Source: Candidatus Eiseniibacteriota bacterium
Lineage (GTDB): Bacteria; ARS69
Length of the DNA: 15,949 bases
Reading direction: 5' to 3'
Assembly: GCA_052390515.1 (NCBI GenBank)
Contig: JBQTGV010000140.1
Span: 1-15,949 of the forward strand
Position 1 is the stretch's first letter, and each line of letters opens with the position of its first letter. The translations under genes were made by a program, and so were the position numbers. A model generated the notes under the pieces. The model was not told where the DNA came from, ran no database searches, and worked only from the letters and a program-made list of their open reading frames with translations. Of the stretch, positions 1 through 15,949 are shown piece by piece.

Positions 1-2367
1 TACGCTCTCCCACGGCTCGGACGCGGGAACGGCACCCGTGCTATCGGGAGGAAGATCCGTCGTATCCAGCTCGAAGGCGGGGAGCTTGCCGACGAAGCCG
101 TGATTCACGAACGAGTCGGTGAAGTGCAGGTCGATTTGCGTGAGGCCGAAGTATTCGACGACGTCACCGGACACGCACACCGAATCGCCCTCTTCCACGA
201 GACCGACCACGCTCCCGCCGGTGAACACCTGGATGCCGCGGTTCGCCGGGTCCGTCGTCCAGTGGTTCTGGATCGTGAAGATGTTGTCCGCCAGCACCCC
301 GGGCGACATGGTCACGATGCCGGCGCAGTTCCGCGGATTGCCGGAGAACGCCGAGCTGTCCTGCGTGCCGGAGATGTACGTGGACTGGATCGTCTCGATG
401 GTGACCATCCCCACGTAGAGGTCGTAGTCCCCGGTCAGGGGCGCGCGGCCGTCGAAGCCGGTGTTGTCGGTCACTTCCACGTGGTAGTTCAGATCCGTTC
501 CGGCCGGATACGGGCCGACCGCGGCCTGCCAGTTCGTGCCGGAGGTGAACACCATGTTCGTGGAGTCGTAGGTCGCGCCGTTGTTCGTCGAGAAGTACAG
601 CTTCGCCCGCGTGATCGTCCCGTTGTCGGTGATCTGCGACGACACGGTGATCGCGTTCGCCGCCTGCGGACAGATCGGGCTGTAGCGCACTAGCGTGACC
701 AGCGGCGGGCCGATGATGTCGGCGTCGTCGCGCGGCTCCAGCTTGCGGTTGGAGAAGGAGTAGTCCGCGATCCCCTGTACGGCGACGAGCGAATCACCCG
801 TGGTGGGGACGTAGTTGTAGAACGCGTCGTCATCGACCCGGCAGGTGCCGGTGGCGTCGGTGATCTCCCACTCGCCGAAGCCGAGCGTGGTGCTGCCCAC
901 GACCACGTTGTTCACCCGGACGTACACGCCCTCGTAGGTCTCGCCGATGGCGGCGCCCGTGGTCAGGCTGGACGCCCCGATGACGCTCGGCCCGGGAAGC
1001 GGCCGGTTGGAGGCCAGGATCTGCACGGCCGGCTGGCCGAAGAACACGACTTCGGTGCGCTCGAAGAACTCCTGAACCTCACCCGAGATGCGCACGCTGT
1101 CCCCACGGGCGACCTGGATCGTGGAGGTGGGGTCGAAGCAGTGCACCCCGTTCCAGAAACCGGCCGCGGACTGCACGGTGAGGAGGCCGGCGGCATACAG
1201 CCCCGGCTCCGCCGTCACCACGCCTTCGATGTTCACCGGGTTGCCGACCTCGGCGGACTGGCCGGTATCGCTCGGCGGCGAGTGGAACTGCACCGAGAAG
1301 ATGGTCTGCGTGCCCCAGCGCACGCTGCGCGTCGAGAAGTCCGGGAACTTGCTGGTGCCCGCCGGGCTGCCGCTGTCCGTCGCGTCGACGTGGTAAGTCA
1401 CGACGGCGCCGTCGAGCTGCGCGGGGATCGTTCCCGTGTACGCGTTCGGACCGCTCAGAGACATGGCGACGTTGGTCGGGGCACCCGCGTTCACCGAGTA
1501 GACCAGCGTCATCGACGCGATCCCGTCGGAGTCGGTGGCGGTGACGCTGACCTGGGCCGACTGGCTCGAGGTCGGGGAGGCCGGGTTGATGAGCATGTTT
1601 GAGAGCGCGGGGCCGGGGTTCGGGATGTTCGCCGCGCCGGGCGTGTCCGACCCGAGGAGAAGGTCCGTCGAGCTGTTGCCCGTGTCGGTCGCCGAAGCAT
1701 TCCGACCCAGCGACTCGCCCACGCCCGGGAAGGCGGGAAACGCGTCGTTGTCGCTCGTGCCGACGCCCGTGCAGACGTCCGCGGTGCAGGTCGAGTTGCG
1801 CCACTCGATGGCGTCCTGCAGTACCCCGCCCGTGCCGGGGTTGCCGTTCCAGAGCTTGAGGACTTCGTACTGGTTGAAGACCGTGTTGCAGGTCGCTCCG
1901 AATCCGTTGCCGGGCAGGAGGCGGATCTGCGTGTCGTTCGCCGGATCCTGCGCGGAGAGGAGCGTCATGTTCGGAACGCTGGGGTCGTCGAACTCGAACG
2001 TGCGGTCAGGGTCGAAGAACTCGTAGTCGGCGTCGAACCCGAACCGCTCGAGGAACCCATCCTGCTCCTGGTTCGCGGCGTCGGTATTGTCCTTCGCCAC
2101 CACCACGTAGCCGCCCGCCGGAATCGTCGCGCCCGCGGGGAACGCATAGAGGTGGTCCCCGGCGCAGCTACCCGCGAACTCCGTACCGCCGACAGTCCAG
2201 CCGGCGATGCTCACGGAGGAACCGCCCTTGTTGTGGAGCTCGATGAACTCCGCCCCGTCGAAATCGGAGCCGGGGTTCGTCAGGACCTCGTTGATCACCA
2301 CCTGGGCCGGCGCGGTCGTTGCCAGCGCGAGCACTGCTATCAGGGACCCGGAGAACTTCGAACGCAT
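1..2367 (-). CDS. Secreted LTD + repeated (Ig-like + OB-fold) protein resembling the non-catalytic part of ExeM/NucH/YhcR nucleases; 3'-partial
   Basis: Not in the ORF track. Manual translation from ATG 2367 stays open to position 1 (789 codons). SD-like GAGAGGA lies upstream. Signal peptide MRSKFSGSLIAVLALATTAPA|Q. LTD start VVINEVLTNPGSDFDGAEFIELHN...GWTV...FPAGATIPAGGYVVV. OB-fold motifs VNIEGVVTA...RGDSVRISGEVQEFFERTEV and GETYEGVYVRV...FGEWEITD...VQGIADYSFSNRKLEPRDDADI. Confidence 0.9.
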   Translation of the reverse strand, partial: MRSKFSGSLIAVLALATTAPAQVVINEVLTNPGSDFDGAEFIELHNKGGSSVSIAGWTVGGTEFAGSCAGDHLYAFPAGATIPAGGYVVVAKDNTDAANQEQDGFLERFGFDADYEFFDPDRTFEFDDPSVPNMTLLSAQDPANDTQIRLLPGNGFGATCNTVFNQYEVLKLWNGNPGTGGVLQDAIEWRNSTCTADVCTGVGTSDNDAFPAFPGVGESLGRNASATDTGNSSTDLLLGSDTPGAANIPNPGPALSNMLINPASPTSSQSAQVSVTATDSDGIASMTLVYSVNAGAPTNVAMSLSGPNAYTGTIPAQLDGAVVTYHVDATDSGSPAGTSKFPDFSTRSVRWGTQTIFSVQFHSPPSDTGQSAEVGNPVNIEGVVTAEPGLYAAGLLTVQSAAGFWNGVHCFDPTSTIQVARGDSVRISGEVQEFFERTEVVFFGQPAVQILASNRPLPGPSVIGASSLTTGAAIGETYEGVYVRVNNVVVGSTTLGFGEWEITDATGTCRVDDDAFYNYVPTTGDSLVAVQGIADYSFSNRKLEPRDDADIIGPPLVTLVRYSPICPQAANAITVSSQITDNGTITRAKLYFSTNNGATYDSTNMVFTSGTNWQAAVGPYPAGTDLNYHVEVTDNTGFDGRAPLTGDYDLYVGMVTIETIQSTYISGTQDSSAFSGNPRNCAGIVTMSPGVLADNIFTIQNHWTTDPANRGIQVFTGGSVVGLVEEGDSVCVSGDVVEYFGLTQIDLHFTDSFVNHGFVGKLPAFELDTTDLPPDSTGAVPASEPWESV

Positions 2368-2520: not shown

Positions 2521-2564
2521 GAAAGCGCTCTCCGCGCCTTCGCCCCGCACCCGCGGGGAGAGCG
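2521..2564 (-). terminator. GC-rich stem-loop after the 5'-nucleotidase stop; possible weak intrinsic terminator or mRNA-stabilising hairpin
   Basis: Inverted repeat CGCTCTCC (2526-2533) / GGAGAGCG (2557-2564) begins 10 nt after the stop. It is followed on the minus strand only by CTTTC, a poor U-tract. Confidence 0.35.
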
Positions 2565-2574
2565 ATTCGGAGAG

Positions 2575-4266
2575 TCAGGGAGTCGCGGCGGACCGGGCGC
2601 GGGCCGCCGCCTCGGCGAATGCCGGATCCGGCGCGGCGGCGTCGTCCCTCACCCAGCGGCCGTCGATCGTGGGCGAGACCGGTGAGTGTCGCGCGATCCA
2701 GTTCTCCAGCGCCTGCAGGACGGTCTTCCCGGTGTACACCTTGCTGTCCTCCGGGAGCCCGGGGAGCATGGTGAGGTCGGAGTTCCCCTGCATGAGGAAG
2801 TCGCTCGTCGCCACTCGGTAGGTGGCGTTCGGATCCCAGGGCTTCCCTCCTACCTCGAGCCGGGTGACGCGGTCCCAATCCGGACGCGTCATGTTGAACA
2901 CGACCCGCCCCCCACCGATGTGCAGGCCGTGCCGCGTCTCGGCGATGCGCGCCTCGATGATCTCGCGCAGAACCGTCCCCGGGATCTCGATCACCACGAG
3001 CTTGTTCCCGAACGGCAGCACCTCGAACACGTCGCGCGGGGTCACCGGGCCAGCGGCGAGCTCGGCGCGGATCCCGCCCAGGTTGGTGAAGGCGAAGTCC
3101 GCACCGGACTCCTCCACCATCGCGTCGCAGACCGCGTTGCCCATCGGCGTGTCGTTGTCGCCGCGGGTGAACTCGGCGCTGGCCTGTCCGATGACGCGGT
3201 CCATTCCCGCCTCCGCCTTCGCCACCTCGTCCTGCACGAAGCGGCGGACATCCGGATCCGGCCAGAACTCGTCCTCGAAGAAGGTGATCAGGTAACCGCG
3301 CTCCGAGGCGAAGCGGTGATCGAGGATCTGGTTCGTCTCCGTGTCGATCGTGAGCGTCACGATTCCCGCGCCCGAGCCTCGCCCATAGGTCTGGAACAGC
3401 AGCGTGTGCGTGTTCGGCACGACCCAGGCCTCGTCGAACCCCTTGTGGATGTGTCCGCAGAAGAACGCGTCGAGCCCCGTCACGGCATGCGCGACGTCCA
3501 TCGCCGTCGACCGCGGGTCGTCGTCGGAGGGCCACCCGTCCCGGGTCACCCGGCGGAAGTGCTCTTCCGGATCGTAGGGGATGCCCACGTGACCGACGGC
3601 GAAGATGACGTCCACGTCCTGGCGGCGAAGCTCCTCGATGGCCCGGCGCACCACCGGCGCCATCGGAGCGAACTCCAGCCCGGCGATGTTCGCCGGGAAG
3701 CTCATGTTCGAGGTCTCCGGAGTGATGAGGCCGATCACGCCGACGCGCAGGTTGCCGTAGTCCTTCACGATCCACGGTTCGACCCAGTCGACGACGTCGT
3801 CCGTGCCCTCGGAGACGAGGTTCGCGGCGAGGACCGGGAACTTCGCCCGCTCGACGAGCTCCTGGGTGTTCTCCTTGCCCTCGTCGAAATCGTGGTTGCC
3901 GAGCGCCAGGAGGTCGTAGCCCGCGGTGTTCATGAAGTCGATGACCGCGCGACCCTTGGTCAGCGTGCCGATCGGTGTGCCCTGGAACGTGTCTCCCGAA
4001 TCCACCAGGAGGAAGTGTCCGCCCTTGCCCTGCACGTCGCGCCGCAGGTTCCCGATCAGCGTCGCCATGGAAGCCGCGCCGCCGAGCCGCGGGGGGAACT
4101 CCCGGTTCATGAACGTCGCGTCGGAGGGATCGATGCCGCCGTGGATGTCGTTCGTGTGCACGACGGTCAGCTCGACGATCTCGGCCGCGGCCGGCCCGGC
4201 GAAGACGAGCACGAGCGCGGGCAGCGCGGCGGATCGAAGCACTCTCGGAAGCACTAGCCACCCCAT
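2575..4266 (-). CDS. Secreted bifunctional metallophosphatase / 5'-nucleotidase (UshA/CD73 family)
   Basis: Full metallophosphoesterase motif set: HTNDIHG, DSGDTFQG, LGNHDFD, VGHVG, CGHIH. C-terminal 5'-nucleotidase domain has TNLGGIRA, VLPFGN and ATSDFL. Signal peptide ends ...GPAAA|E. An alternative GTG start at 4254 overlaps the upstream TAG. Confidence 0.93.
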   Translation of the reverse strand: MGWLVLPRVLRSAALPALVLVFAGPAAAEIVELTVVHTNDIHGGIDPSDATFMNREFPPRLGGAASMATLIGNLRRDVQGKGGHFLLVDSGDTFQGTPIGTLTKGRAVIDFMNTAGYDLLALGNHDFDEGKENTQELVERAKFPVLAANLVSEGTDDVVDWVEPWIVKDYGNLRVGVIGLITPETSNMSFPANIAGLEFAPMAPVVRRAIEELRRQDVDVIFAVGHVGIPYDPEEHFRRVTRDGWPSDDDPRSTAMDVAHAVTGLDAFFCGHIHKGFDEAWVVPNTHTLLFQTYGRGSGAGIVTLTIDTETNQILDHRFASERGYLITFFEDEFWPDPDVRRFVQDEVAKAEAGMDRVIGQASAEFTRGDNDTPMGNAVCDAMVEESGADFAFTNLGGIRAELAAGPVTPRDVFEVLPFGNKLVVIEIPGTVLREIIEARIAETRHGLHIGGGRVVFNMTRPDWDRVTRLEVGGKPWDPNATYRVATSDFLMQGNSDLTMLPGLPEDSKVYTGKTVLQALENWIARHSPVSPTIDGRWVRDDAAAPDPAFAEAAARARSAATP

Positions 4267-5564
4267 CCGGGCAGGACCCAGGTCACCGTGCCGTAGGCCG
4301 TGACGGAGCTCTCGTCCACCAGGTCCTTCGACGACCGGCTCGTGCCGCCGAACATCGCGTCGTCGAAGAGGTCGTGGAAGCGATAGTCGCGGCTGGCGGC
4401 CTCGAAAGCAAGGTCCGCGCGCAACGGCCCGACGTCAAGCCCACCGCCCAGGGTGAACGTGGTCGTGGCCACCTCGTCGTCCTGCGGCGAGGGCAGGTAG
4501 TGGAAGCCGAAGCGGACCGGGAAGCCGTTGTAGAAGACGTGCTCCAGGCCGAAGCGGAGCTGCCACACGTCGTGCAGCGCGAGATCCGGCCACACTCCGT
4601 GGGAGAACTCCGACCACTCGGTCCAGGTGGCCTCGACGCGGACGGTCGTCTTGACCTTCGCCCGGGGACGATAGGCCAGGCCGAACCCCACCTCCTGCGG
4701 ATACGTGATCTCCACCGAGGAGCCCGGCGTTGCCGGCGCGGCGAAGTAGGCGAGCGCGGCTGCATCTCCCGCCTGGGCGATGTCGCCGTCGACCGAGGCC
4801 TCCCCGCGCCAGGTCACTCCGGCGTCGACCCGGTGATCGGGCCGCACCGAGAGCCCGACCCCGACCCTCGTGCCGGAGAAGTCCTCCACGGCGAGCGTCG
4901 ACGCCGCGACGCTGTCCGCCGGGATGAACCAGGTGCCGTGCAGCAGCTCCTGCTTTCCGGACAGCACCGCGATCGACGCGCCGACGGCCAGCCGCTCGTC
5001 CGGGGCGAAACCCGCGGCGAACGTGAGCGCGTCGAGCGCCCCGCCGGAGTGCACCTCGTTCAGCGCGATGAGCTGGTCACGGGGCTGCGTGAAGGAGTTG
5101 TTGTCCCGCACCTCCTCCGTGTAGTCGTACTGGAAGTCCCGCTCGGGGGCGAAGGAGACGCCCACGCCGAGCGCGCCCTTGGTCCACGACGCCGGAACTG
5201 CCGCGGTGACGCCGATCCCGCCGCGGTACTGGTACTCGTCGTTCAGCACGTAGATCGACTCGACCAGGAACGCGTCGAAGCTGTCGTACGCCGGGATCGA
5301 GCGCGTCTCCTTCAGCTTGAGCACGCCGCCGCCCAGGGACACGCGGGGATCCCCGATCCAGGCGAGCCGAGCGGGATTCGCCGTCCCGGTGAACGCACCG
5401 ACGTCCTCGGCCAGCCGGGTCCGCCCCAGCGCCACGGACCGGGCCTCCGGGAAGAGCGCGTCGTCCCCGGTGGCGAGCTCCAGGAACGTGAGCGCGTCGG
5501 AGCGCGCCGCCGCCAGCGCCACGCAGAGCGACAGCGCCGGGAAAGCTACGCGGAATCGCATCAT
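4254..5564 (-). CDS. Outer-membrane beta-barrel, FadL/OmpP1(PorV)-like superfamily
   Basis: Signal peptide and SD GGAGGGAGG. N-terminal EARSVALG...ANPARL motif typical of FadL/PorV-like barrels. Alternating amphipathic strands (VGFGLAYRP, VRVEATWTEWS, LRFGLEHVF, PVRFGFHY, FTLGGGL, LRADLAF). Confidence 0.75.
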   Translation of the reverse strand: MMRFRVAFPALSLCVALAAARSDALTFLELATGDDALFPEARSVALGRTRLAEDVGAFTGTANPARLAWIGDPRVSLGGGVLKLKETRSIPAYDSFDAFLVESIYVLNDEYQYRGGIGVTAAVPASWTKGALGVGVSFAPERDFQYDYTEEVRDNNSFTQPRDQLIALNEVHSGGALDALTFAAGFAPDERLAVGASIAVLSGKQELLHGTWFIPADSVAASTLAVEDFSGTRVGVGLSVRPDHRVDAGVTWRGEASVDGDIAQAGDAAALAYFAAPATPGSSVEITYPQEVGFGLAYRPRAKVKTTVRVEATWTEWSEFSHGVWPDLALHDVWQLRFGLEHVFYNGFPVRFGFHYLPSPQDDEVATTTFTLGGGLDVGPLRADLAFEAASRDYRFHDLFDDAMFGGTSRSSKDLVDESSVTAYGTVTWVLPGWGG

Positions 5565-5586
5565 CGGGTCCTCCCTCCGCGCTCGT

Positions 5587-8088
5587 TCAGAACGCGTAGT
5601 CCGCCTGGATGCGGAAGTAGTTCGTGACGTCCTTCACGTCGCCGGCGTCGACCGGTTCGCCGACCTCGGCGTTGAACTGGCGAATGTCCACCGCGGTGTT
5701 GCGCAGCTCGTTCTCGCGGACGTAACGCAGCCGGATCGTGAGACCGTCGGACACGCGGTCGGTCAGCTCCACCCAGCTGCGGTACGCGTTGCCGTCGGCG
5801 ACGCGGAACGTGCTCTTCTCGAAGAACCACAGGAATCCGTCGTACACGAAGATGCCGCCGTCCACCTTCGTCCGGCGGTTCTCGAAGTTGTGAGTGAAGA
5901 AGCCTCCGAACGCCCAGCCCGGCTCGGCGTTGTTTCCCGAGATGGGCGGCACCCCGGTGGCCACCGGCTCGCCCTGCAGACGCCCGCGGGGCGGCCACTG
6001 CGTGTAGGCCGTCGCGTACAGGAACTCCAGCTGATCGAACCGCGAGAGCCGATACTCGAGCTCGATGCGCGTCTCCACGTTGTTGAAGATGGAGCCGTCC
6101 TGCAGGTTGTCGAGCTCGCGGCTCTGCCACTTGTGTCGCAGCTTGAAGCGCAGCGGGAAGAGGATGCGGTACTCCAGCCGCCCCACGAACCGCGAGTACC
6201 GGCTCATGTCGCCCTGGCGGCGCCAAGTGTCCCACTCCACGATGGTGGTGAAGGGCTGCGCCCACTGGTAGCGAGTGTTGATGTAGAAGCCGCGCTCCGC
6301 CTGGGGCTGCGCCGACGTCTCGAAGGCGAAGCCGTAGAGCGGATCCTCCAGCCGGAAGTAGTCCTCGATGATCGTGCCCTTGAAGCGCTCGTAGTTGGAG
6401 AAGGACCGCTGGTACGGATTGTCGAAGGCCGTGTCGTAGTCGCGGTACACGGTGAGGAAGTTCAGGTTCTCGTACTGGATCCAGGAGTTGAGCACGACGG
6501 CGCTGGGGTTCGGCGTGCCGCCGAGGCCGAACGGCTTGCGCCCCTTGTCCAGCTCCGCGTACTCGCCCTGCAGCGCGAGGTTGCGGTAGACCCACTGGAA
6601 GTCCATCCCGTACACGCGCCGGTACTTGCCTTCGCTCTCGTACGACGAGAGCAGCTCCGAGTCCTGCGCGACGATGTTGTCCTCGTCGTCGTCGGCGATC
6701 AGCGGATGCTTGTCGGTGGGGTTCGAGGGGTCCCACTGGGTGTCGAAGAAGCGGTCGTAGCGGCTCTCGTACCCGCTCACCCCGACGTGACGCCCGTACC
6801 CGAAGTCGTAGCGGAGATTGCCGCCGAACGTGGTCTCCTCCAGCACGTCCTTCATCGGGCGAAGGCCCGCTGCCTCCAGCGCCTCGTCGTCGATGCGCGG
6901 CGTCGTGCGGATCAGCAGGTTCACGGACCCGTCGTCGTTGAGGATGGCGTCCCGCTCGTCGTCGGAGAAGAAGCCCAGCAGCCGGAGCGGGCCGACCCGC
7001 GCCTCGGTGGCGACGCCGCGCAGCGCGTACTCGTCGGTGCGGGACAGATCGCCGAGGATGCCGTCGTAACGCTTGGCGAAGCTGTAGCCGTGATGGCGGG
7101 CGCTGCGGAAGTCCGTGTTCTCCATCACGACGCCTTGGCCCCAGGAGATCTGGTAATTGCCCACGTAGAGCTTGTCCACGTGGACGGGGCCGAACGTCAG
7201 CCCCTTCACGCCGCCGAACGCCTTCTGCGTGTCGAGCAGATCCTCCTCCCCGAAGCGGCGCGACGTCACCGCGCCCGCCTCCAGCAGGCGGCCGTAGCGC
7301 AACGCGAGCTTCTGCGAGACCGCCGGCTCGGGGTTGTCCAGACCGAGCCGATCCCACCAGTTGTCGTTCGTGCCCTGCCCGGGGTCACGGTCGTCGCGGA
7401 GCAGATCCTCGGTGCTGTCGAAGTAGTCCGTGGTCTCGACCCGCAGCGAGTAGGCGCCGTGCAGCTCGTCCTTCTCGGCCGGCGGCTCCTCGTAGAGGAC
7501 GAAGTTGCGCATGTTGGAGTAGCCCCAACCGGTGAGGCCGGGGGCCCGGCGAAGCTCGCTCTGGTTCCCGATGCGGCCGACCTGGTCGCGGTAGCGCGCG
7601 ATGGACACCGCGTCGACCGGTGTCGCGTTCTGCAGATTCGTGAGATCCAGGACGCTCGCCTCGTTGACGTTGACCGGGTCGAGCGCCAGGTCCTTGTACA
7701 GCTCCACCAGCGACTCGTCCGTGCCCTCCGAGCCTTCCCACCATTCGAAGCGGTAAAAGAGGTCGTCCTTGCGCTGCGCGCGCTCCGACGTGTGCGCCGG
7801 CTCGACCACCACGTGCGGCCTCACCGCGGCCAGCATGGCGGGGGTGAAGCCCTCCACCTCCAGGAGGTCCTGCACGGTCGTGAACCAGTCGACGAACTCG
7901 CGGTGCTCCCAGATCCGGTCGGCCGTCTCCACCGGCACGGGAAGGGCGCGAAGCTGCTCGCGCGTGGCCCGGTTCAAGTCGAGCTTCTCCTGCGCGTTCG
8001 CCGGGAGGGCGAGCGCCAGCGCGGGCAGCGCGAGCTGCGCCAGCATGCGGAGCGCCGCCTTCGCCGCGAGGAGACCTGGCCGGTTCAC
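5587..8088 (-). CDS. Secreted protein with two ComEA-type helix-hairpin-helix (HHH_3) modules and a probable C-terminal outer-membrane beta-barrel
   Basis: GTG start with SD AGGAGG and signal peptide ...LPANA|Q. Modules KLDLNRATREQLRALP...FTTVQDLLEVEGF and PVNVNEASVLDLTNL...IARYRDQVG...SELRRAPGL. Tyr/Phe/Arg-rich strand pattern follows, ending in NYFRIQADYAF (BAM beta-signal-like). Confidence 0.85.
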   Translation of the reverse strand: MNRPGLLAAKAALRMLAQLALPALALALPANAQEKLDLNRATREQLRALPVPVETADRIWEHREFVDWFTTVQDLLEVEGFTPAMLAAVRPHVVVEPAHTSERAQRKDDLFYRFEWWEGSEGTDESLVELYKDLALDPVNVNEASVLDLTNLQNATPVDAVSIARYRDQVGRIGNQSELRRAPGLTGWGYSNMRNFVLYEEPPAEKDELHGAYSLRVETTDYFDSTEDLLRDDRDPGQGTNDNWWDRLGLDNPEPAVSQKLALRYGRLLEAGAVTSRRFGEEDLLDTQKAFGGVKGLTFGPVHVDKLYVGNYQISWGQGVVMENTDFRSARHHGYSFAKRYDGILGDLSRTDEYALRGVATEARVGPLRLLGFFSDDERDAILNDDGSVNLLIRTTPRIDDEALEAAGLRPMKDVLEETTFGGNLRYDFGYGRHVGVSGYESRYDRFFDTQWDPSNPTDKHPLIADDDEDNIVAQDSELLSSYESEGKYRRVYGMDFQWVYRNLALQGEYAELDKGRKPFGLGGTPNPSAVVLNSWIQYENLNFLTVYRDYDTAFDNPYQRSFSNYERFKGTIIEDYFRLEDPLYGFAFETSAQPQAERGFYINTRYQWAQPFTTIVEWDTWRRQGDMSRYSRFVGRLEYRILFPLRFKLRHKWQSRELDNLQDGSIFNNVETRIELEYRLSRFDQLEFLYATAYTQWPPRGRLQGEPVATGVPPISGNNAEPGWAFGGFFTHNFENRRTKVDGGIFVYDGFLWFFEKSTFRVADGNAYRSWVELTDRVSDGLTIRLRYVRENELRNTAVDIRQFNAEVGEPVDAGDVKDVTNYFRIQADYAF

Positions 8089-8099
8089 CTCTCCCCTCC

Positions 8100-8981
8100 T
8101 CAGAACGCGATCCCCACGCCGTAGTGCAGCGTGTGGTTGAGCACCGGATGGTGCGCGTAGGTGAAGTCCACGTCGGCCTTGCCGTAGGACAGCCCCGCGC
8201 CCACGTCGAACACGTTCGGCTCGGAAGACGCGCCGAATCGAAGGGCCAGCGGCTCCGCGACCCGGAACTCCACGCCCCCGCGGAACTGGATGTCCTCGCC
8301 GAGCTCCTTCTCCATCTCGAACGCGGTGATCACGCCCTCGTACGGGCGATAGGCGACGCCTCCCGAGACCCGCTGCGGCAGGTCGGTGGCGACGGGGTCG
8401 CCCATCTCCGGGTTGTTCACGTTGGTGAAGAACACGCCGGCGGTCGTCCGCTCCCGGAGCCGCGCGACGAACCCGAGATCGAGCCCGATCGTCGTCTCCG
8501 ATCCCAGGTCGAAGCCGCCGACCGAGGGTGTCGGATAGTCCAGGTTGTAGAGGTGCAGCGCGTAGCCGAAGGACAGCCCCGAGGAGATGTCCTCCATCAG
8601 CCGGAAGCCGTGCGAGACCGTCACGGTGCGCTCGATGGACAGCGTCGTGCCGTCGTTCTCCGCGCGGAAATCGGAGTAGCCGACGCCCACCGTGCCCCAG
8701 CTTCCTGCCGGGATCACCACGGAGATCGCGTTCACGCGCAGGAACTCCAGGTCGTGCGGATAGAAGAGCGACATGTAGAGCTCGTGCTCGGCGGCGTCGA
8801 CGAGACCGGCGGGGTTGTAATTCACGCCCTGGGCATCCTGGGACAGCCCGGCGTAGCTGCCGCCGAGTGCCCGGGCCCGCGGGCTCGGTTCCAGGTCCTC
8901 GAAGATCGCGCGGGCCGGCGTTCCGGAGAGCGCCACCCCGGCGACGACGAGGAGCGCCCGGCCTCCTCGGAGTGATTTCAA
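8100..8981 (-). CDS. PorV/PorQ-family (T9SS-associated-like) beta-barrel, about 293 aa
   Basis: Start revised to TTG 8981 (GGAGGT 6 nt upstream, then a signal peptide ...GTPARA|I). Motif SPRARALGGSYAGLSQDAQGVNYNPAGL. Typical later strands DLGF, GVFFTNVNNP, DLPQRVSGGVAY, FRGGVEF, LALRFG, DFTYAHHPVLNHTLHYGVGIAF with terminal Phe. Confidence 0.8.
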   Translation of the reverse strand: MKSLRGGRALLVVAGVALSGTPARAIFEDLEPSPRARALGGSYAGLSQDAQGVNYNPAGLVDAAEHELYMSLFYPHDLEFLRVNAISVVIPAGSWGTVGVGYSDFRAENDGTTLSIERTVTVSHGFRLMEDISSGLSFGYALHLYNLDYPTPSVGGFDLGSETTIGLDLGFVARLRERTTAGVFFTNVNNPEMGDPVATDLPQRVSGGVAYRPYEGVITAFEMEKELGEDIQFRGGVEFRVAEPLALRFGASSEPNVFDVGAGLSYGKADVDFTYAHHPVLNHTLHYGVGIAF

Positions 8982-9019
8982 CGCGGCACCTCCCGTTGTT
9001 CCTGCTCCGGAGTGGAGCG

Positions 9020-12000
9020 TCAATCCGCGATCCTCATTCGGCCGGGGCTGGCCCCCGGCCGGTTTCCGTCGAGCCGCAAGCCCACCACGATCGGCGCGGC
9101 GATGGTCTTCACGCTGCCGCCGTCGAGGGCCACCGCCCTCGCGTGGCAGATGTACACGCCCGGGTCCACCACGGACCCGCTCTGATCCCTGCCGTCCCAC
9201 TCGAAAGCCATCTCGCCGAGCCCGACGCCGTCGTACAGCGTGGTGATCTTGCGGCCGACCGCATCGTAGATCTCCACGATGATGTCGCTGCGCCGCGGGG
9301 ATCGGGCGAGGATGTCGATGGTCTCTCCCAGATCCGGGACGAGCACGCGCTTCTCCACCTGCACCGAGGGTCCATCGGACGCGAAGCTGCCGTCCACCTC
9401 GAAGATCGCGTCCTGGTTCTGGGGAACGAGCTCGTACCCCGAGAGGAAGGGTTCGGTGGCGTCGAACTGGGTGAGGACGCCGGTCACGTCGAGGCGGTCA
9501 CCCACGGTGAAGCGCGTCAGATCCAGCGAAGAGAAGTTCTGGAACACCTGCACCGAGCCGCTCCCGTCGTCGATCCAGGCGGCCAGCGCGTTCGCGTTGA
9601 TGACCGTCCCCTCGGTGTGCACCAGGGTCCCCTCCAGCCGCTCGTCGTTCGCCGCCGCGGTGCTCACCTCGATGGGCGCGGGCCCGGCGCCTGCCACGAT
9701 GACCAGCTCGTAGAATCCGATGTCGCCCACGATGCCGGCCACCTCGGTGACCGAGCCGGACCCGGAGGACGCGGACACGAACTCCGTGACCACTCCGCGG
9801 ACGCGGACGAAATGGTTCAGCTGCACGCCGAACTCGCGGACGTCGGCGAACTCCAGCTGGAAGTCGGCCGCACCCGTCGGCAGGAACGAGAACACGTTCA
9901 CGCCGCATCCTCCCGGCTCCTGCACCCAGATGCTGACCCGGTCGGTCGGCGGCGGGGCTCCCGGCGCGGAAGCCGGGATGTCGCCGAGCGTCACGAAGCC
10001 GGCGAAGACCACGGTCTCGCCCACGCGCGGAGAGAAACCCGACTCGTCGAACTGCTGCACGTCGCACACGGTCACCGCCTCGGCGGGAACGGTGAAGCCG
10101 GTCGATCCGCTGAACACGTTGCCGCCGGTCCCCCCGATCACGAGATCGGTGACGCCCGACACCGAGAGCGTCCCCGAGGCGGACGGCGGGATCGGGTCGG
10201 TCACGACGAGGTAGTGCCGCTGCGGAGCCTCGATGTCGCCGAACACTTCCCGGACGGCGTAGCTCTGACCGCCGGCGACGACGGAGTAGTTCCCTGGCGC
10301 CGTGGCGGTCGCCTCGTCGACCGGCTCGTCGTAGCGGATCTCGATGACCGAGGCGGAGAGACCCAGCGTCGCGCTGGCCACGAATCCCGGAGGCACCGTG
10401 TCCCCGGGCACGTTCGCCGCTCCGGGCGTGGCCACCGACGCCGGCAGGAAGTCGGCGAGCGAGGAGCCCGTGTCCGACGACGAGGCGCTGCGCCCGAGCG
10501 AGTGGCCCGGCTTCGGCGGACCGAAGGGGTACGCGTCATCCGCTCCGGTCAGCGGTCCCGTGCACAGGTCCCCGGCGCAGGGTCCGATCTCCCGGTACTC
10601 CACCGCGTCGATCACCGTGCCCAGCACGTCGCGGAGCACGAGCACCTCGGCGAAGGGAACGATGCGGCCCGGGACGTTGGGCGATTCGCACTGCCCGCCG
10701 TTCGTGACCACGCCGCCGAGCAGCCCGATCTGGTCGTCGACTGCCGCGTGGGGATCGAGCAGGGTCATGTTGGGTGTCGCGGGGTCGTCGGCGGCCGCGG
10801 AGTTGTCCCCCAGCGGCGCGGCGGACGGCGACTCCAGGTCGAACATCTCGACGAGCGCGCCGGTGAAGCCCGGGAAGGAGACGCGAAATCCTCGGTCGTC
10901 GGCCGGGTTCCCGGGGTTGTTCGGATCGAGCGCCGTTCGGGCGACGACGAGGTAGCCGCCGGCTGGAAGCACCGTGCCGGACGGGAACGCCCAACGCGAG
11001 TCCAGCGTGCACCCCTCGCTCCGGCCCACGTCGGTGAGCGTCCACCCGGAGACGTCGAGGTCCACGGTCGTCCGATTGTACAGCTCCACGAACTCGGACT
11101 CGTCGCTGGTGTCGTTCGGGTTGGCCGAGACGGGCAGCAGCTCGTTGATGACCACGTCGCCCGGGCTCGCTCCGGTGACCACGTTGACAACGGGAGGGGC
11201 GGCGATCGGCGACGGCGTGCCGCCGAGGGTCGCCGTGCGCACGGGGAACGCGGACACGCCGGGATTCACCGGGGACGAGAGGTTCATGACGGTGAGGGTC
11301 CCGGAGGCCGCCGCGGTGACCGCGGCACCGGTGATGCGGATCGTGGGCGGCGCCCCCGGAACGACGCCCGCGGCGGCCGCGCCGAAGCCCGCGCCGCCGA
11401 GCGCGACGTCCGTCACAGACTGCGTCCATCCCCACGCCACCGGCACGTCCAGCTCGATCGTCTCCAGCGTGGCGACCTGGCCGGTGAAGGTGAAGTTCAG
11501 CGTCACGCCGGTCGCGTCCTCGGGAACGGAGGGCGGGCTCACGGTGGCCGTCCCCGAGCCGTCGCCGCGCACCAGATCGGCGAGCGACGTCGGCCAGACG
11601 AAGTGCGAGTCGTTGAAGGGCGGCGCGTCGTCCTGGGCGACGAACCCGATCAAGTCGAAGGCGGCGCTCGGCGGTGCGGAACCGTCGAGATCCGTCTCGT
11701 CGTCGACGTACATCCGGAAGGTGGAGACGCCGTCGGTCACGTTCACGAACGCGGAAGCACCCGCCGCCGGCCACGCGCCGGGGTTCACGATGGTGAGCGC
11801 GTTGATCCGCACGCGCGTCCCCTCCCACGCGGCGCCGTTCGTCACGATGTCGGCGGCGGTGACGACGACCGGCGCGGCCGTCGCGCCCGAGCCGATCACC
11901 GTGACCGTGCCCCCGAAGCCGAGGTCGAGCGTCCTCGTTCCGCGGATCGGCGCCGCGCCCTGCGTGAACACGGTCGAGGTGACGCTCACGCTGTCGCCGG

Positions 12001-12325
12001 GCGCCACCGCCGTGCCGATCGAGCCGGGACGGGCGATGGCGAGACCCCCGGTTCCGTCGGAGACGTAGAACCAAGCCGACGCGCCCGCCTGATCGAACGG
12101 ATCGAGGCGCCCGGTCCCGACCTGGACGACGCCCTGGATGTCCACGGTGAAGAACTCGAGCGGCGAGAACCCGCTCGCGTTGTTCGCGTTGATCTGGGAG
12201 ATCGGCGTCGTTCCGGCGATGCGTCCGAGCGGCGCGTCCGGCACCTCGCGGCCGCCGTAGGTCCGCGCCGCCGCCGGACTCGCCGCGGCGAGCATCCAGG
12301 CCAGGAGCAGCACAGCGCGTCTCAT
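9020..12325 (-). CDS. Large secreted protein: OB-fold pair, Ig-like, LTD, Ig-like, OB-fold pair, FlgD-Ig/T9SS-CTD-like tail (1101 aa)
   Basis: True start is ATG 12325, in an ATGA overlap with the upstream stop, giving signal peptide MRRAVLLLAWMLAAASPAAA. OB motifs FYVSDGTGG...PGDSVSVT, WEGTRVRI, RLEGTLVH and VGDRLDVTGVLTQFD...YELVPQ. LTD DVVINELL...EFVELYN...DVSGWTL. Tail VEIYDAVGRKITTL...WDGRDQSGSVVDPGVYI. Confidence 0.88.
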   Translation of the reverse strand: MRRAVLLLAWMLAAASPAAARTYGGREVPDAPLGRIAGTTPISQINANNASGFSPLEFFTVDIQGVVQVGTGRLDPFDQAGASAWFYVSDGTGGLAIARPGSIGTAVAPGDSVSVTSTVFTQGAAPIRGTRTLDLGFGGTVTVIGSGATAAPVVVTAADIVTNGAAWEGTRVRINALTIVNPGAWPAAGASAFVNVTDGVSTFRMYVDDETDLDGSAPPSAAFDLIGFVAQDDAPPFNDSHFVWPTSLADLVRGDGSGTATVSPPSVPEDATGVTLNFTFTGQVATLETIELDVPVAWGWTQSVTDVALGGAGFGAAAAGVVPGAPPTIRITGAAVTAAASGTLTVMNLSSPVNPGVSAFPVRTATLGGTPSPIAAPPVVNVVTGASPGDVVINELLPVSANPNDTSDESEFVELYNRTTVDLDVSGWTLTDVGRSEGCTLDSRWAFPSGTVLPAGGYLVVARTALDPNNPGNPADDRGFRVSFPGFTGALVEMFDLESPSAAPLGDNSAAADDPATPNMTLLDPHAAVDDQIGLLGGVVTNGGQCESPNVPGRIVPFAEVLVLRDVLGTVIDAVEYREIGPCAGDLCTGPLTGADDAYPFGPPKPGHSLGRSASSSDTGSSLADFLPASVATPGAANVPGDTVPPGFVASATLGLSASVIEIRYDEPVDEATATAPGNYSVVAGGQSYAVREVFGDIEAPQRHYLVVTDPIPPSASGTLSVSGVTDLVIGGTGGNVFSGSTGFTVPAEAVTVCDVQQFDESGFSPRVGETVVFAGFVTLGDIPASAPGAPPPTDRVSIWVQEPGGCGVNVFSFLPTGAADFQLEFADVREFGVQLNHFVRVRGVVTEFVSASSGSGSVTEVAGIVGDIGFYELVIVAGAGPAPIEVSTAAANDERLEGTLVHTEGTVINANALAAWIDDGSGSVQVFQNFSSLDLTRFTVGDRLDVTGVLTQFDATEPFLSGYELVPQNQDAIFEVDGSFASDGPSVQVEKRVLVPDLGETIDILARSPRRSDIIVEIYDAVGRKITTLYDGVGLGEMAFEWDGRDQSGSVVDPGVYICHARAVALDGGSVKTIAAPIVVGLRLDGNRPGASPGRMRIAD

Positions 12326-13839
12326 CGCAGGGCGCCCTCCGCCGCCGCGGCGATGACCACCGGAGCCGTCGTCGCGTCGCCCGTGCCGGGAATGGTCAGG
12401 TGCAGGATGTACAGGCCCGCGGGCAGGCGGCGGCGAAGATGGTCGCGGCCGTCCCAGCGGATGGTGCGCAGCCCGCCCTCCGGCGCCACCTCCTCGGCGA
12501 GGACGAAGAGCTCGCGTCCCTCGACGTCGTAGAGGCGCAGCAGCACGTTCTCGCCCTGCGGCGCGACGTAGCGGATCTCCACCTGGCCGTCGAGGTGCGG
12601 CACGAAGGGCCGCTTGGGCACGGTGAGGTCGAGGCCCGGGCCGGGGTTGAATCCGCGGAAGAAGACGCGGCTTCCCGGAGCCACCTCCTCGGCGAGGTCC
12701 TCGGTGAGCACCCCGCGCGCCCGCAGCTCGTAGAACGCGAGCGGCACGAGCGCCTCCGTGCCGAGCCCGACGGTCAGCGCGTCGTCGCCGAGCGCAGCGG
12801 AGCGCACCGCGACGGGCACGCCGGTCACCTGCCCCGCCGGGGACTGCAGCTCGATCAGCGTGTAGTTGGACGGAGTTCCCGCGGACCCGGCATCCAGCGC
12901 GCGAGAGAACTCGACCTCCACCAGCGCCGCCTCGACGGCGCGCGCCGCGACCAGCGCCGGCGGGCCGAACGGCCCCGGCGTGCCGATGGAATGCTCCGTG
13001 TCCGGCAGCCAGGTCGCGGAGAGATTCTCGCTCGTCTCGTCGTGCCCGGCGATCCCGTTCCCCCCGCTCGCCGTCTCGGTTCCCTCGGTGAAGTCCGCGC
13101 GCGTCACCGTCCGGCCGAAGGCGTGCACGCCGTTGTCCGCCAGGTCCTGGCCTTGAGGCGCCGTGTCGGGCAGGTACACCGAACTGGTGTTGTCCGCATC
13201 GGGACCCTCGACGGCCACGCCCGACTTGTTCGGCGACACGGTGTTGAACACCGGGCCGGCGTCGCTCCACTGGACGATGTCGACGTCCTGGACGAGGTCG
13301 CTCTGGCCGTCCCAGAAGAACAGCACGATGGTCTCGCGCGCGTTCGACAAGCCGGCCTCGGACTGGATGTAAGGAGTGCCGACGATCTGCGGACCCGGAT
13401 CGATCATCGCCGGCACGCCGTCGCCCGTGCCGTCGTCGACCAGTTCGAAGTCCGGAACGGGCAGTCCGGGCCAGGACCCGCTGAACGCCAGATCGTCGTG
13501 GATGGAGATCACCATGGTCTCGCCCGGCCCGATCGTGGTGCCGTCGGGGAAGCGCGCCAGGAAGTCGTTCGGGAACGCCGGGTCGGGCTGCAGCCCACCG
13601 TCCACCAGCCGCCAGTAGTTGCTCGTGGGGTCGCTGGCCAGGACGAAGTCGGACACGTAATAGTGCGAAAGCTCGATCACGTCCGCGGTCGGGTTGTAGA
13701 TCTCCACGAACTCCGCGTCGGTCGGAGTCACCGCGTACTCGCTGAGCAGCAGGTGATCCTGCGCGGCCGAAGGCGACGCCAGCGTCCCGGCCGCGAGCCA
13801 CGCCAGGCTCGTCACGCACGGGCCGGGGATTCGTCGCAA
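12322..13839 (-). CDS. Secreted LTD + Ig-like + FlgD-Ig/T9SS-CTD-like protein (about 505 aa)
   Basis: Start revised to TTG 13839 (AGGAG 6 nt upstream, then signal peptide ...LASPSAA|Q). LTD LLLSEYAVTPTDAEFVEIYNPT...FPDGTTIGPGE...GLSNARETIVL. Ig-like VEVEFSRALDAGSA...NYTL. Tail LRLYDVEGREL...WDGRDHLRRRLPAGLYIL. Confidence 0.87.
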   Translation of the reverse strand: MRRIPGPCVTSLAWLAAGTLASPSAAQDHLLLSEYAVTPTDAEFVEIYNPTADVIELSHYYVSDFVLASDPTSNYWRLVDGGLQPDPAFPNDFLARFPDGTTIGPGETMVISIHDDLAFSGSWPGLPVPDFELVDDGTGDGVPAMIDPGPQIVGTPYIQSEAGLSNARETIVLFFWDGQSDLVQDVDIVQWSDAGPVFNTVSPNKSGVAVEGPDADNTSSVYLPDTAPQGQDLADNGVHAFGRTVTRADFTEGTETASGGNGIAGHDETSENLSATWLPDTEHSIGTPGPFGPPALVAARAVEAALVEVEFSRALDAGSAGTPSNYTLIELQSPAGQVTGVPVAVRSAALGDDALTVGLGTEALVPLAFYELRARGVLTEDLAEEVAPGSRVFFRGFNPGPGLDLTVPKRPFVPHLDGQVEIRYVAPQGENVLLRLYDVEGRELFVLAEEVAPEGGLRTIRWDGRDHLRRRLPAGLYILHLTIPGTGDATTAPVVIAAAAEGALR

Positions 13840-13900
13840 AGCCTTCTCCTGCGGCGTCACGCGGGGGGGAACTCCGGGAGGGTCCCGAGCGGAGCAGATC

Positions 13901-13929
13901 CGTGTAGCATGCGACCCGGGCGAAGTCAA
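13901..13929 (-). promoter_or_regulatory. Candidate sigma70-type internal promoter
   Basis: Minus strand TTGACT (13929-13924), 17 nt spacer ending TGC, then TACACG (13906-13901), in the 112-nt gap before the LTD gene. The -10 lacks the conserved final T. Confidence 0.5.
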
Positions 13930-13951: not shown

Positions 13952-15277
13952 TCAGGCTCCGGCGAGAGCGGCGTTCGCCTTCTCCGCGGCGGAGCGAAGC
14001 GCCTCGGCCGGCTCCATTCGACCGCGCAGCACCGGCTCGATGGCCTCGCGCTCCAGGATGTCCCGGCCGGCGTACCAGCCCTTCGCCTTGGGCTGCGGCA
14101 GGGCCCGATCGAGTTGCGCGTACGCCTCGCGGAGACCGGGGTGAGCGTCGAGCTTCGCGGCGAGCACCGGGTGCTGCATCGCCGACTTGCGAACCGGCAG
14201 GTAGCCGGTCTCCGCCGCCCATCGGGCGGTCTGCGGCGTATCGGTGAACCACTTCACGAAGCGCCAGGCGCGGGCCCGGCGCTCCGGCGTGGAGGCGAAC
14301 ACGACGACGTCGGTTCCGGCGACGAGCTGCGTGTCCCGCTTCCCCGCCGGCAACGGCGCCACACCCAAGTCGAACGTGTACTTCCCTTCCAGGAACGCGA
14401 TGCTCACCGAGCTTCCCTCGATCATGGCCACGTTCCCGGCCAGGAACTCGTTCTGGTACTCGAATCCCTGCGAAAGGAGCGTCGTTCCGTCGCGCAGCAG
14501 GAGATCCGTCATGAACTCCAGCGCCTCGATCCCCTCGGGCGAATCGAACGCGGCGCGCTGCTCGGCGGCGTCGAGCAGGCTGCCGCCGTTCTGGACGATG
14601 AGGTTCTCGAACATCGTGACCGTGATCTGGCTTCCGAGACCCCAGCGGTCGACCTTCCCGTCGCCGTCGCGGTCCGCGGAGAGCTTCCTGGCCGTCTCCC
14701 GGTACTCGCCCCACGTGCGCGGCGGCTGTTCCGGATCCAGCCCCGCCTCGCGGAACGCGTCCTTGTTGTAATAGAGGCAGCGCACCGACTTGTTGAACGG
14801 GAACGCCCAGAGCACTCCGTCCTGGGTCGCTCCGTGCAGGAAGATCTCGTGGATGTCGGCCAGGCTCTCGGCGGAGAGGCCCGCGCTCCCGGCGAGCATC
14901 TCGCTGAAGGGAGCGAGAGACGCGTTGGCGATCAGGTTCGCCGTCCAGGCCTCGTAGCACTGCGCGACGTCCGGTGGCCCGCCCGCCGCCACCGCGGCCA
15001 TCAGCTTCTGCGACAACGCCTCGTACTGTCCCATCGAGACGCTCTCGATCGCGCCTTCGCCGAGCGCGTTGTACTCGCCGACCAGTCCCTCGAGGGAACG
15101 GCCCAGCGGCCCACCCATCGCGTGCCAGAAGCGCACCGGCTCCGCGGGCGGATCGGCGGCGCCGCCGCACGAGGCGAGGGCGGCGGACAGGGTGATGACG
15201 GCGGACCGGGCGATGGCAGCCGACCGACCGATGGCCGTGGACGGGGCGATGACGGCGAAGCGTGACGTTCGTTTCAC
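13952..15277 (-). CDS. ABC transporter solute-binding lipoprotein, family 1, UgpB-like
   Basis: Lipobox LASC (Cys37). FWHAMGG and [30 protein letters not shown] resemble E. coli UgpB motifs as I recall them ([37 protein letters not shown]). C-terminal AWRFVKWF...[14 protein letters not shown]. Confidence 0.92.
   Translation of the reverse strand: [441 protein letters not shown]
15167..15256 (-). repeat. Five degenerate 18-bp tandem units inside the SBP signal peptide
   Basis: GCCGTCATCGCCCCGTCC / ACGGCCATCGGTCGGTCG / GCTGCCATCGCCCGGTCC / GCCGTCATCACCCTGTCC / GCCGCCCTCGCCTCGTGC, encoding [30 protein letters not shown]. Confidence 0.65.
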
Positions 15278-15281
15278 GGGG

Positions 15282-15949
15282 TCACCCCTTGAGCCCGGTG
15301 TGGGTCAGGCTCTCGATGATCTGTCTCTGGGCGAAGAAGTACGCCACCAGGAGCGGCGCGATCGAGAACATCGCGGCGGCCATCATCAGGCCGTGCTCCG
15401 TCCCCTGGGACTGCGCGAAGTAGGCGAGCCCGACCTGGATCGGGCGGATCGAGTCCGAGTTGGTCATCACCAGCGGCCACAGGAAGCTGTTCCACGTGTT
15501 GATGAACGTGAACAGGCACACCGTGGTCACCGCCGCCCGCGAGAGCGGGAGGATCATCGAGAAGATGAAGCGCACCGGCCCGCAGCCGTCGATGACCGCG
15601 GCGTCCACGAGGTCCCGCGGGAACGACAGGAAGTGCTGCCGGAGCAGGAAGATGGAGAACACGTGGGCGAGCCAGGGCACGATGAGCGCGGAGTAGTCGT
15701 TGATCCACCCGTCGCTGCCGCCGCCGGGAAGGTTGTACAGCAGGATGTACGAGGAGATGATGTAGACCGGCTCGGGGACCATCATGGTGGACAGGAACGC
15801 GTTGAAGATGCCTTCGCGCCCGCGGAACCGGAGGAACGCGAAGGCGAACGCCGCGAGGCTCGACGTGACCACCACCCCGCCGACGATGCAGCCGGCCACG
15901 AACACGGTGTTCCAGAAGTACCGCGGGAAGGGCCCCGTGCCCCAGGCCT
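15282..15949 (-). CDS. CUT1 (UgpE/MalG-like) ABC transporter permease; 5'-partial
   Basis: The frame stays open to the window edge (AWGTGPFPRYFWNTVFVA...). EAA loop FLLRQHFLSFPRDLVDAAVIDGC and motif FINTWNSFLWPLV, with several hydrophobic helices. Confidence 0.94.
   Translation of the reverse strand, partial: AWGTGPFPRYFWNTVFVAGCIVGGVVVTSSLAAFAFAFLRFRGREGIFNAFLSTMMVPEPVYIISSYILLYNLPGGGSDGWINDYSALIVPWLAHVFSIFLLRQHFLSFPRDLVDAAVIDGCGPVRFIFSMILPLSRAAVTTVCLFTFINTWNSFLWPLVMTNSDSIRPIQVGLAYFAQSQGTEHGLMMAAAMFSIAPLLVAYFFAQRQIIESLTHTGLKG

Follow-up and report, generated by a model that had tools for sequence, protein, structure and literature searches.

In sediments and in the ocean, extracellular DNA constitutes a large reservoir of phosphorus, nitrogen and carbon, and for most uncultured diderm bacteria its passage through the outer membrane is poorly understood. 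Among the closest described systems, the ddbABCDEF loci of Bacteroidales combine nucleases with the DUF5689 DNA-binding surface protein DdbD, for which a HIN-like similarity was reported, and with the TonB-dependent transporter DdbC (PMC12478041). These loci are homologous to the transformation system of Riemerella (PMC12478041), and in Riemerella anatipestifer RA0C_RS04915/04920 and a separate periplasmic helix-hairpin-helix (HhH) protein, RA0C_RS02645, serve transformation without a known pilus (PMC8459023). Pilus-dependent uptake is represented by Vibrio cholerae with its PilQ secretin, type IV pilus and free ComEA (PMC3879209). The use of DNA as phosphorus source in Shewanella and Vibrio is UshA-dependent and involves the extracellular nucleases ExeM/NucH, which carry LTD and OB domains (PMC6085458, PMC4714964). 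The locus described here lies on contig JBQTGV010000140.1 of a Candidatus Eiseniibacteriota bacterium, whose entire 15,949 bp (about 69% G+C) represent the analyzed stretch, the window; the source assembly comprises 4.27 Mb and is 95% complete. One gene of this contig, termed the HhH-barrel gene in the following, fuses two ComEA-like HhH modules to a predicted 24-stranded outer-membrane barrel. We see about even chances that its product is the outer-membrane conduit of a DNA-scavenging locus which is linked to type IX secretion (T9SS) and works independently of TonB and of pili.

Architecture and distribution of the HhH-barrel protein

The protein was modelled with AlphaFold2 on the basis of 50 homologues, and the model reached a mean predicted local distance difference test (pLDDT) score of 83.3 and a predicted template modelling (pTM) score of 0.81. 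The original prediction, made from the sequence alone, had taken about 600 residues of strand-like sequence ending in YAF for an outer-membrane barrel, and the model indeed contains 24 strands between residues 209 and 832. The strand number is even, the phasing is amphipathic in every strand, and the strands are connected alternately by long loops and by short turns, the latter eleven in number and 2-5 residues long. In addition, the chain ends in ADYAF and thus in the aromatic C-terminus that is typical of outer-membrane proteins. Taken together, the even strand number, the alternation of short turns and long loops and the C-terminal YAF would place both barrel termini at the periplasmic face. 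The HhH modules would consequently reside at the periplasmic mouth of the barrel, which agrees with the side predicted before. The relative P0163 (1251 residues) carries about 435 extra N-terminal residues with tetratricopeptide (TPR) repeats ahead of its HhH modules. Such TPR arrays on outer-membrane proteins are periplasmic, and the array of P0163 thus fits a periplasmic N-terminus. An autotransporter-like surface display of the HhH modules was rejected as improbable in view of the mere 10 residues between module 2 and strand 1, which leave no long pore-spanning linker.

Beyond the HhH modules, none of the Pfam or NCBIfam models matches the remaining ~630 residues. A search of the PDB sequences with the family profile likewise found the HhH part only (EEPD1, ComEA, KIF22, PsbU; ComEA 8dss at 7.4e-09) and no match over the barrel. 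For the modelled barrel, Foldseek returned only generic outer-membrane barrels from the PDB (TM 0.15-0.32). VIA-align likewise gave nothing but outer-membrane barrels for this part, headed by the chaperone-usher pores FimD (3ohn_B; Z 14.3, root-mean-square deviation 4.9 Å, 366 residues) and PapC (2vqi_A; Z 14.1), aligned over 366-367 residues at 8% identity, with Z-scores just about 1 above those of unrelated porins. Ushers are gated pores wide enough for folded pilin, and they share the 24 strands and the overall barrel shape with the model. However, the target gave no match to Pfam Usher (PF00577) at E<=0.01 and lacks the plug as well as the N- and C-terminal domains of ushers. We therefore rejected an identity as usher and take the likeness to FimD/PapC, as far as the model goes, to reflect the same size class, with no kinship implied.

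An identity as TonB-dependent transporter was rejected as well, given that neither Plug (PF07715) nor TonB_dep_Rec was matched in Pfam or NCBIfam and that the model has 24 strands as opposed to 22. Seven TonB-dependent transporters align with the model from residues 112-120 onward (VIA-align, Z 10.6-12.2), which hints that the linker or module 2 occupies the plug position. Read indirectly from these aligned ranges, module 2 possibly occludes the pore. The target is no secretin either: Pfam PF00263 found no match in it, and the secretin genes of this genome lie on other contigs.

Lumen-facing positions were assigned by the family-averaged hydropathy phase of each strand and not from coordinates. 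The 154 strand positions obtained this way carry a positive net charge in each of the 50 sequences (mean +9.6, range +5 to +17), while the entire barrel of the query has a net charge of -28. Among the conserved lumen-facing positions, 19 are basic vs. 9 acidic, and they are clustered on strands 14-18 and 22-23. A strongly acidic lumen, which had been named beforehand as evidence against a DNA channel, consequently does not apply. A hand calculation (standard barrel-radius formula, n=24, shear number ~26) yields a backbone diameter of ~43 Å. A barrel of this size would admit B-DNA only with its conserved loops moved aside.

Concerning the N-terminal part, inspection by eye suggests a type I signal peptide: the first residues are basic, a hydrophobic core follows, and a probable cleavage site lies between PANA and QE. 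Both this signal peptide and the two HHH_3-like modules expected at about 7990-7500 had been anticipated and were recovered (Table 1). Pfam HHH_3 (PF12836) matches the target in two stretches with an E-value of 3.1e-17 and 62.9 bits (cut-off 27). Module 1 superimposes on ComEA of G. stearothermophilus (8dss_B) with a Z-score of 11.7 and a root-mean-square deviation of 1.3 Å over 64 residues at 33% identity (VIA-align). The ComEA cut-offs of NCBIfam were missed, with 38.9 vs. 152.35 bits for TIGR01259 and 25.7 vs. 53.1 bits for TIGR00426. All 50 aligned relatives possess module 2, with the invariant residues P138 and P157 as well as the nearly invariant N142, D159, A160, G189, Y190 and N192; module 1 is absent in three of the 50. 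A sublineage of proteins of ~800 residues (P0090, P0092, P0094) possesses module 2 without module 1, and its barrel region is longer by ~40 residues.

A word-indexed search delivered 97 relatives, nearly all of them 800-890 residues long and covering 90-100% of the query. They are named solely 'HhH domain-containing protein' or 'ComE-like DNA-binding protein', in agreement with the statement of the original prediction that such architectures are annotated merely under the former name. At E<=1e-30, 193 clusters (50% identity) came out of an exhaustive profile search; the much larger cluster counts at weaker E-values probably reflect HhH-only proteins. A scan of one genome per species gave 358 loci, the best 80 of which underlie the synteny counts given below. 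These 80 are labelled Gemmatimonadota, Eisenbacteria, Zixibacteria, Ignavibacteria, Marinimicrobia/Neomarinimicrobiota, Calditrichia and Fidelibacterota. The nearest clusters in the ESM Atlas were commonest in Bacteroidota, a statement resting on few members with known phylum. The family is conserved and unnamed and is spread over several phyla of the Fibrobacterota-Chlorobiota-Bacteroidota (FCB) group, with at least seven named lineages. It furthermore represents a near-core gene of its own small GTDB phylum, where it occurs once in 11 of 12 species genomes, the exception being only 73% complete. In the source genome the gene is single copy as well (the search returned the 100% self-match). 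This phylum consists of 12 species-level genomes of one family, and its closest public records bear the label Gemmatimonadota or merely 'bacterium'. In the open full-text literature, with supplements and subscription journals outside the scope, we found no description of the HhH-barrel fusion or its locus.

Conserved gene neighbourhood and layout of the locus

The genes around the HhH-barrel gene are conserved across the family. Counts refer to loci with enough flanking DNA, the remainder of the 80 being cut by contig ends. A PorV-like gene lies directly upstream in 67 of 67 loci and a FadL-like gene directly downstream in 68 of 69. The latter is followed by an UshA-like gene in 52 of 58 loci; four Calditrichia-type loci are without it, and in two it is found further off. 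An LTD protein is encoded upstream in every one of 51 loci. This synteny holds across metagenome-assembled genomes of Eisenbacteria, Zixibacteria, Ignavibacteria, Marinimicrobia, Calditrichia and Fidelibacterota and across those labelled Gemmatimonadota. Only closer relatives carry the UgpB-like/ABC genes (20-21 of the 80 loci), and through them the locus may be connected with the scavenging of phosphate or glycerophosphodiesters. The T9SS-tailed LTD proteins may have their own anchors in the PorV-like and FadL-like barrels, which could alternatively be additional channels. A complex prediction of the barrel (residues 201-833) with the PorV-like neighbour (residues 25-293) scored 0.00 in both runs and speaks neither way.

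The LTD proteins have FlgD_ig, Por_Secre_tail or CHU_C-type domains at their C-termini, which are T9SS sorting signals, and the source genome encodes the T9SS translocon SprA. In 12 of 13 examples, the gene adjoining the PorV-like gene encodes an OB-fold nucleic-acid-binding domain (PF01336). The same gene matches DUF5689, the DdbD family, in 4 of the 13, all of them below the gathering score (best 4e-05). A model of such an OB-fold LTD protein from upstream of the PorV-like gene displays an LTD, an Ig domain, two OB folds and a C-terminal domain like beads on a string (pLDDT 79.8, pTM 0.43). With the tandem-OB model, Foldseek placed the dsDNA-bound p204 HINab (5z7d) on rank 2, at a low TM of 0.13/0.21. 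A full-length orthologue of the third LTD protein (L003:15586-18687) ends in FlgD_ig/Por_Secre_tail.

Some lineages have nuclease genes in the locus as well. Of the 80 loci, 16 have EEP genes closely downstream, as does one cut locus, and 2 contain Endonuclease I. T9SS tails are present on both an Endonuclease I gene (E 3.2e-82) and an EEP gene of L042, a locus of Marinimicrobia type. There, a Metallophos-EEP fusion replaces the 5'-nucleotidase and is followed by a further EEP gene. These additions and the replacement are located at 2325-4603 and 13864-16822 of L042, and L049 is a further such locus. The source genome itself possesses one Endonuclease_NS gene outside the locus, and no Endonuclease I was found in it. 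At the level of sequence, the conserved neighbours strongly support a link of the locus to nucleic acids.

Within the window, the minus strand carries all plausible genes (Table 1). In the order of transcription, an ABC permease and the UgpB-like binding protein are followed by two LTD proteins, the PorV/PorQ-like barrel, the HhH-barrel, the FadL/PorV/BamG-like barrel, the UshA-type enzyme and, after ~200 nucleotides, the third LTD protein. From the LTD genes to the nucleotidase gene, intergenic gaps do not exceed 22 nucleotides or are replaced by overlaps, as expected of an operon. Two of these overlaps, the ATGA stop/start overlap of the two LTD genes (12322-12325) and the 13 nucleotides shared by the FadL-like stop and the nucleotidase start (4254-4266), suggest translational coupling. 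A GAGGAGG stretch resembling a Shine-Dalgarno sequence precedes the GTG start of the HhH-barrel gene. The listed open reading frame 9020-13819 is over-long, its real start being 12325. Further long frames, antisense to the genes or out of phase with them, e.g. 5317-8124 (+) with 935 and 8528-12532 (+) with 1334 residues, are typical of DNA with 69% G+C and were rejected as genes. A scan of the window for promoters and terminators gave 0 promoter-like and 4 terminator-like sites, no excess over shuffled sequences.

Table 1. Features of the window. Positions refer to the forward strand of the contig, and residue numbers to the HhH-barrel protein unless another gene product is described.
Feature	Position	Strand	Details
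HhH-barrel gene	5587..8088	-	833 residues; GTG start; stop 5587-5589; from open reading frame and translation
Signal peptide	7993..8088	-	residues 1-32; probable cleavage after PANA; read by eye; helix 4-24 in AlphaFold2 model
HhH module 1, ComEA-like HHH_3	7801..7992	-	residues 33-96; best Pfam HHH_3 stretch 33-93; six-frame genome search match 7810-7992
Acidic helical linker	7678..7800	-	residues 97-137; helices 102-109, 111-120 and 125-136 (model)
HhH module 2, running straight into strand 1	7489..7677	-	residues 138-200; HHH_3 match 7498-7677
24-stranded outer-membrane beta-barrel	5590..7488	-	residues 201-833; long strands in residues 209-832 (AlphaFold2 DSSP); conserved loops L3 and L7; C-terminal YAF
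PorV/PorQ-family-like small outer-membrane barrel	8100..8981	-	293 residues; TTG start 8981; directly upstream of HhH-barrel; NCBIfam PorV_fam 47.8 bits (below cut-off of 90)
FadL/PorV/BamG-like outer-membrane barrel	4254..5564	-	436 residues; directly downstream of HhH-barrel; Pfam Toluene_X 24.1 bits (below cut-off); NCBIfam BamG and PorV_fam weak
UshA-type 5'-nucleotidase	2575..4266	-	563 residues; signal peptide, without T9SS C-terminal domain; Pfam 5_nucleotid_C 1.6e-35, Metallophos 9.2e-11; NCBIfam UshA 1.1e-57 (below equivalog cut-off)
Large LTD protein with FlgD_ig-type C-terminal (T9SS-like) domain	9020..12325	-	1101 residues; start 12325; LTD 5.3e-15, FlgD_ig 3.1e-05, weak OB fold (domain scan on 9020-12301)
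LTD protein	12322..13929	-	up to 535 residues; true start probably internal, near 13839; LTD 5.8e-08; weak match to PorU C-terminal region
Third LTD protein	1..2367	-	LTD, CBM_56-like and weak OB/ExeM-NucH N-terminal region; truncated by contig end; ~200 nucleotides after nucleotidase gene
UgpB-like (CUT1-family) solute-binding protein and ABC permease	13952..15947	-	co-directional, upstream; SBP_bac_8 3.4e-38; UgpB model 157 bits (below cut-off)

The conduit reading and its alternatives

We favour the reading of the HhH-barrel as a conduit because the domain set of the locus matches extracellular DNA scavenging and the logic of the Ddb and Riemerella systems. The following scenario could be envisioned: LTD/OB proteins with T9SS-type C-terminal domains would be exported, kept at the cell surface and bind DNA there, possibly with the PorV-like and FadL-like barrels on either side as their anchors. 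Cleavage of the DNA would, in some lineages, fall to Endonuclease I or EEP nucleases secreted by the T9SS. Fragments or oligonucleotides would then pass the outer membrane via the 24-stranded barrel with its arginine-rich strand lining, which is probably gated by L3, L7 and/or HhH module 2. At the periplasmic mouth, the tethered ComEA-like modules might receive and guide the incoming polyanion, or might gate the pore. Finally, periplasmic phosphoesterases, here the UshA-type 5'-nucleotidase and in other lineages the metallophosphatase-EEP fusion, would free nucleosides and phosphate for uptake across the inner membrane.

Several observations weigh against this scenario, and for all family members its support comes from sequence, models and gene context. 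First, the canonical Gly-hydrophobic-Gly motif is kept in none of the four HhH hairpins of the family consensus (LP-[IVL]-[PST]; G(37/50)-[MI]-[TD]; [N27/G11/S8]-V-S; G(37/50)-L-S; 50 sequences), and in the alignment hairpin 1 is one residue shorter than that of ComEA 8dss. Second, a negative net charge of the N-terminal 170 residues was found in 49 of 50 sequences, the remaining one being neutral (mean -8.8, range 0 to -21), the linker alone averages -5.2 in the family, and the conserved basic positions of this region are five only. However, the net charge is a weak argument against DNA binding, because the aligned stretch of ComEA 8dss itself has about -2 (hand count). In a distant subfamily of ~770 residues (P0240, P0242), the HhH motifs are more ComEA-like and basic. 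The HhH part looks like a DNA binder only partly, and that its modules bind DNA is our hypothesis from the modelled fold. Third, conservation within the barrel peaks in loops L3 (residues 316-355) and L7 (residues 552-597), which reach top-residue frequencies of 0.70 and 0.73 vs. 0.56 for the strands. This conservation beyond that of the strands suggests that they fold into the pore as constriction or gate. According to the model they may even fill the lumen, and we only infer an open pore of DNA size. Fourth, no recognisable nuclease domain was detected in the window, whose last LTD gene is truncated by the contig end, nor did the domain scan detect one in full-length orthologues of the window's LTD proteins. 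Fifth, 5'-nucleotidases act on UDP-sugars and NAD as well, and this breadth together with the UgpB-like neighbour makes another phosphorylated substrate possible.

Some of these observations would suit a second explanation, which we nevertheless consider unlikely: the HhH-barrel might be a scaffold or anchor of the same locus. Together with the PorV-like and FadL-like barrels it would then hold the LTD/OB proteins, with the HhH part as plug or protein-binding domain, and the products would enter via other porins. The degenerate hairpins and acidic modules are in line with such a role. HHH_3-like folds also make protein contacts, and models of PsbU and GspK type match related HhH repeats. The most conserved loops could fill the lumen, and the alignments of TonB-dependent transporters from residues 112-120 suggest, indirectly, that the linker or module 2 is at the plug position. 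Furthermore, three barrels in a row beside three T9SS-tailed proteins resemble a pairing of cargo and anchor, which is the logic of PorP/SprF-type systems. However, 24 strands and 19 conserved basic lumen-facing positions would be a large investment for an anchor. Anchoring of the PorV/PorQ/PorP type uses small barrels, two of which the locus already has, and the nucleotidase of 52 of 58 loci points to phosphorylated material that enters the periplasm.

Less probable still is a conduit for a substrate other than DNA, such as RNA, nucleotides, NAD, UDP-sugars, teichoic-acid-like polymers or glycerophosphodiesters, or alternatively a role in polymer export. OB folds bind RNA and oligosaccharides besides DNA, and the OB-fold proteins of the locus could thus serve this reading too. 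In closer relatives the UgpB-like binding protein and permeases lie directly upstream. With respect to export, the TPR-plus-barrel layout of P0163 is reminiscent of exopolysaccharide exporters; BcsC, PgaA and PelB are built in this way. In addition, UshA-type enzymes are described as broad in substrate (PMC10454023, PMC8475336). Against this, the genes that join the locus in some lineages are of DNase type (Endonuclease I, EEP), the OB-fold matches fall into a nucleic-acid-binding family in 12 of 13 cases, and the tandem-OB model resembles a HIN pair bound to dsDNA. UgpB-like genes accompany just 20-21 of the 80 loci, and the neighbours scanned comprise no glycosyltransferase or polymer-synthesis genes.

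The least probable of these explanations is pilus-independent uptake for natural transformation, in which the barrel would import long DNA, the fused modules would retain it and ComEC would move one strand into the cytoplasm. This idea fits the ComEA-type fold and the ComEC that the source genome encodes, and it has a parallel in Riemerella, where a barrel works with a surface protein of DUF5689 type and with an HhH protein that is separate and periplasmic (PMC8459023). The homology of the Ddb loci to that system (PMC12478041) implies that machineries for feeding and for transformation can share parts. However, the genome also encodes a separate canonical HHH_3 (ComEA-like) protein (75.9 bits, in a frame of 189 residues) and matches secretins at five places, spread over four contigs, one of which also carries the ComEA-like gene, so that the standard route appears available. 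On this contig (C133), the ComEA-like HHH_3 gene (244-426) and the best secretin match (20509-20976) are ~20 kb apart. Besides, the conserved partners are catabolic (nucleotidase in 52/58 loci, EEP or Endonuclease I in some), and neither the window nor the annotated neighbours of related loci showed comEC, dprA or comF. With its own ComEC, ComEA-like protein and secretins and with catabolic partners around the barrel, a transformation role is not favoured. The original prediction of a pilus-independent DNA receptor/channel is thus supported in part, by the architecture and the nucleic-acid context of the locus, whereas the same catabolic context and the genome's own competence genes speak against a replacement of the competence pilus. 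A DNA receptor/channel for feeding fits better.

One might finally speculate, with considerable doubt, about a self-contained DNA translocon without TonB or pilus. The OB/LTD proteins would thread DNA into a gated, arginine-lined pore and the ComEA-like modules would capture it, which might feed both catabolism and ComEC-dependent transformation. If true, this would be the third route of DNA across the diderm outer membrane, after the secretin/pilus route and the TonB-dependent route of DdbC type. It would moreover be widespread in uncultured phyla of the FCB group, including the abundant marine Marinimicrobia. If, on the other hand, the preferred reading as conduit holds, the protein would represent a new class of outer-membrane nucleic-acid transporters and a genomic marker of the capacity for DNA foraging in metagenomes. 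The principle of the utilisation locus, known from the polysaccharide utilisation loci (PULs) and Ddb loci of Bacteroidota, would then extend to a T9SS-linked, TonB-independent form.

Comparison with known systems

The HhH-barrel shares with ComEA the HHH_3 match of both modules, the fold of module 1 and presumably the periplasmic location. In contrast, ComEA is small and either free or anchored in the inner membrane, while the modules described here are fused to a barrel of 630 residues, are acidic across the family and have their hairpin glycines replaced. A single tethered HhH copy could not, we infer, serve as a classical multi-copy Brownian ratchet. As a natural ComEA-type fold with altered hairpins, the modules should be useful for defining what such modules need for DNA binding.

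Similar to the pilus-dependent uptake of Vibrio cholerae, a possible passage of DNA through the outer membrane would be coupled to a periplasmic HhH receptor. However, the locus, i.e. the window and its annotated neighbours in relatives, contains no pilus, secretin or ATPase genes. The ExeM/NucH systems resemble the locus in their combination of LTD, OB fold and 5'-nucleotidase, and the N-terminal part of the ExeM/NucH model has a weak match in the third LTD protein. They differ in that their catalytic domain was not detected here and in that they lack a dedicated outer-membrane barrel.

The Ddb and Riemerella systems follow the logic proposed for this locus, with a surface protein of OB/HIN-like type that binds DNA (here putatively), an outer-membrane transporter (here a candidate), secreted nucleases (here in some relatives) and, in Riemerella, a periplasmic HhH protein; their hosts likewise belong to the FCB group. 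However, the transporter DdbC is TonB-dependent and contains a plug, whereas a predicted 24-stranded barrel with fused HhH modules is found here. Moreover, the surface proteins of this locus, unlike those of Ddb, carry LTD and T9SS-type C-terminal domains, and its core includes two small PorV/FadL-like barrels and a 5'-nucleotidase as well. The HhH-barrel locus would be analogous, not homologous, to the Ddb loci of Bacteroidales. Loci for the utilisation or uptake of DNA are already known, and it is the transporter class that would be new if its function were confirmed.

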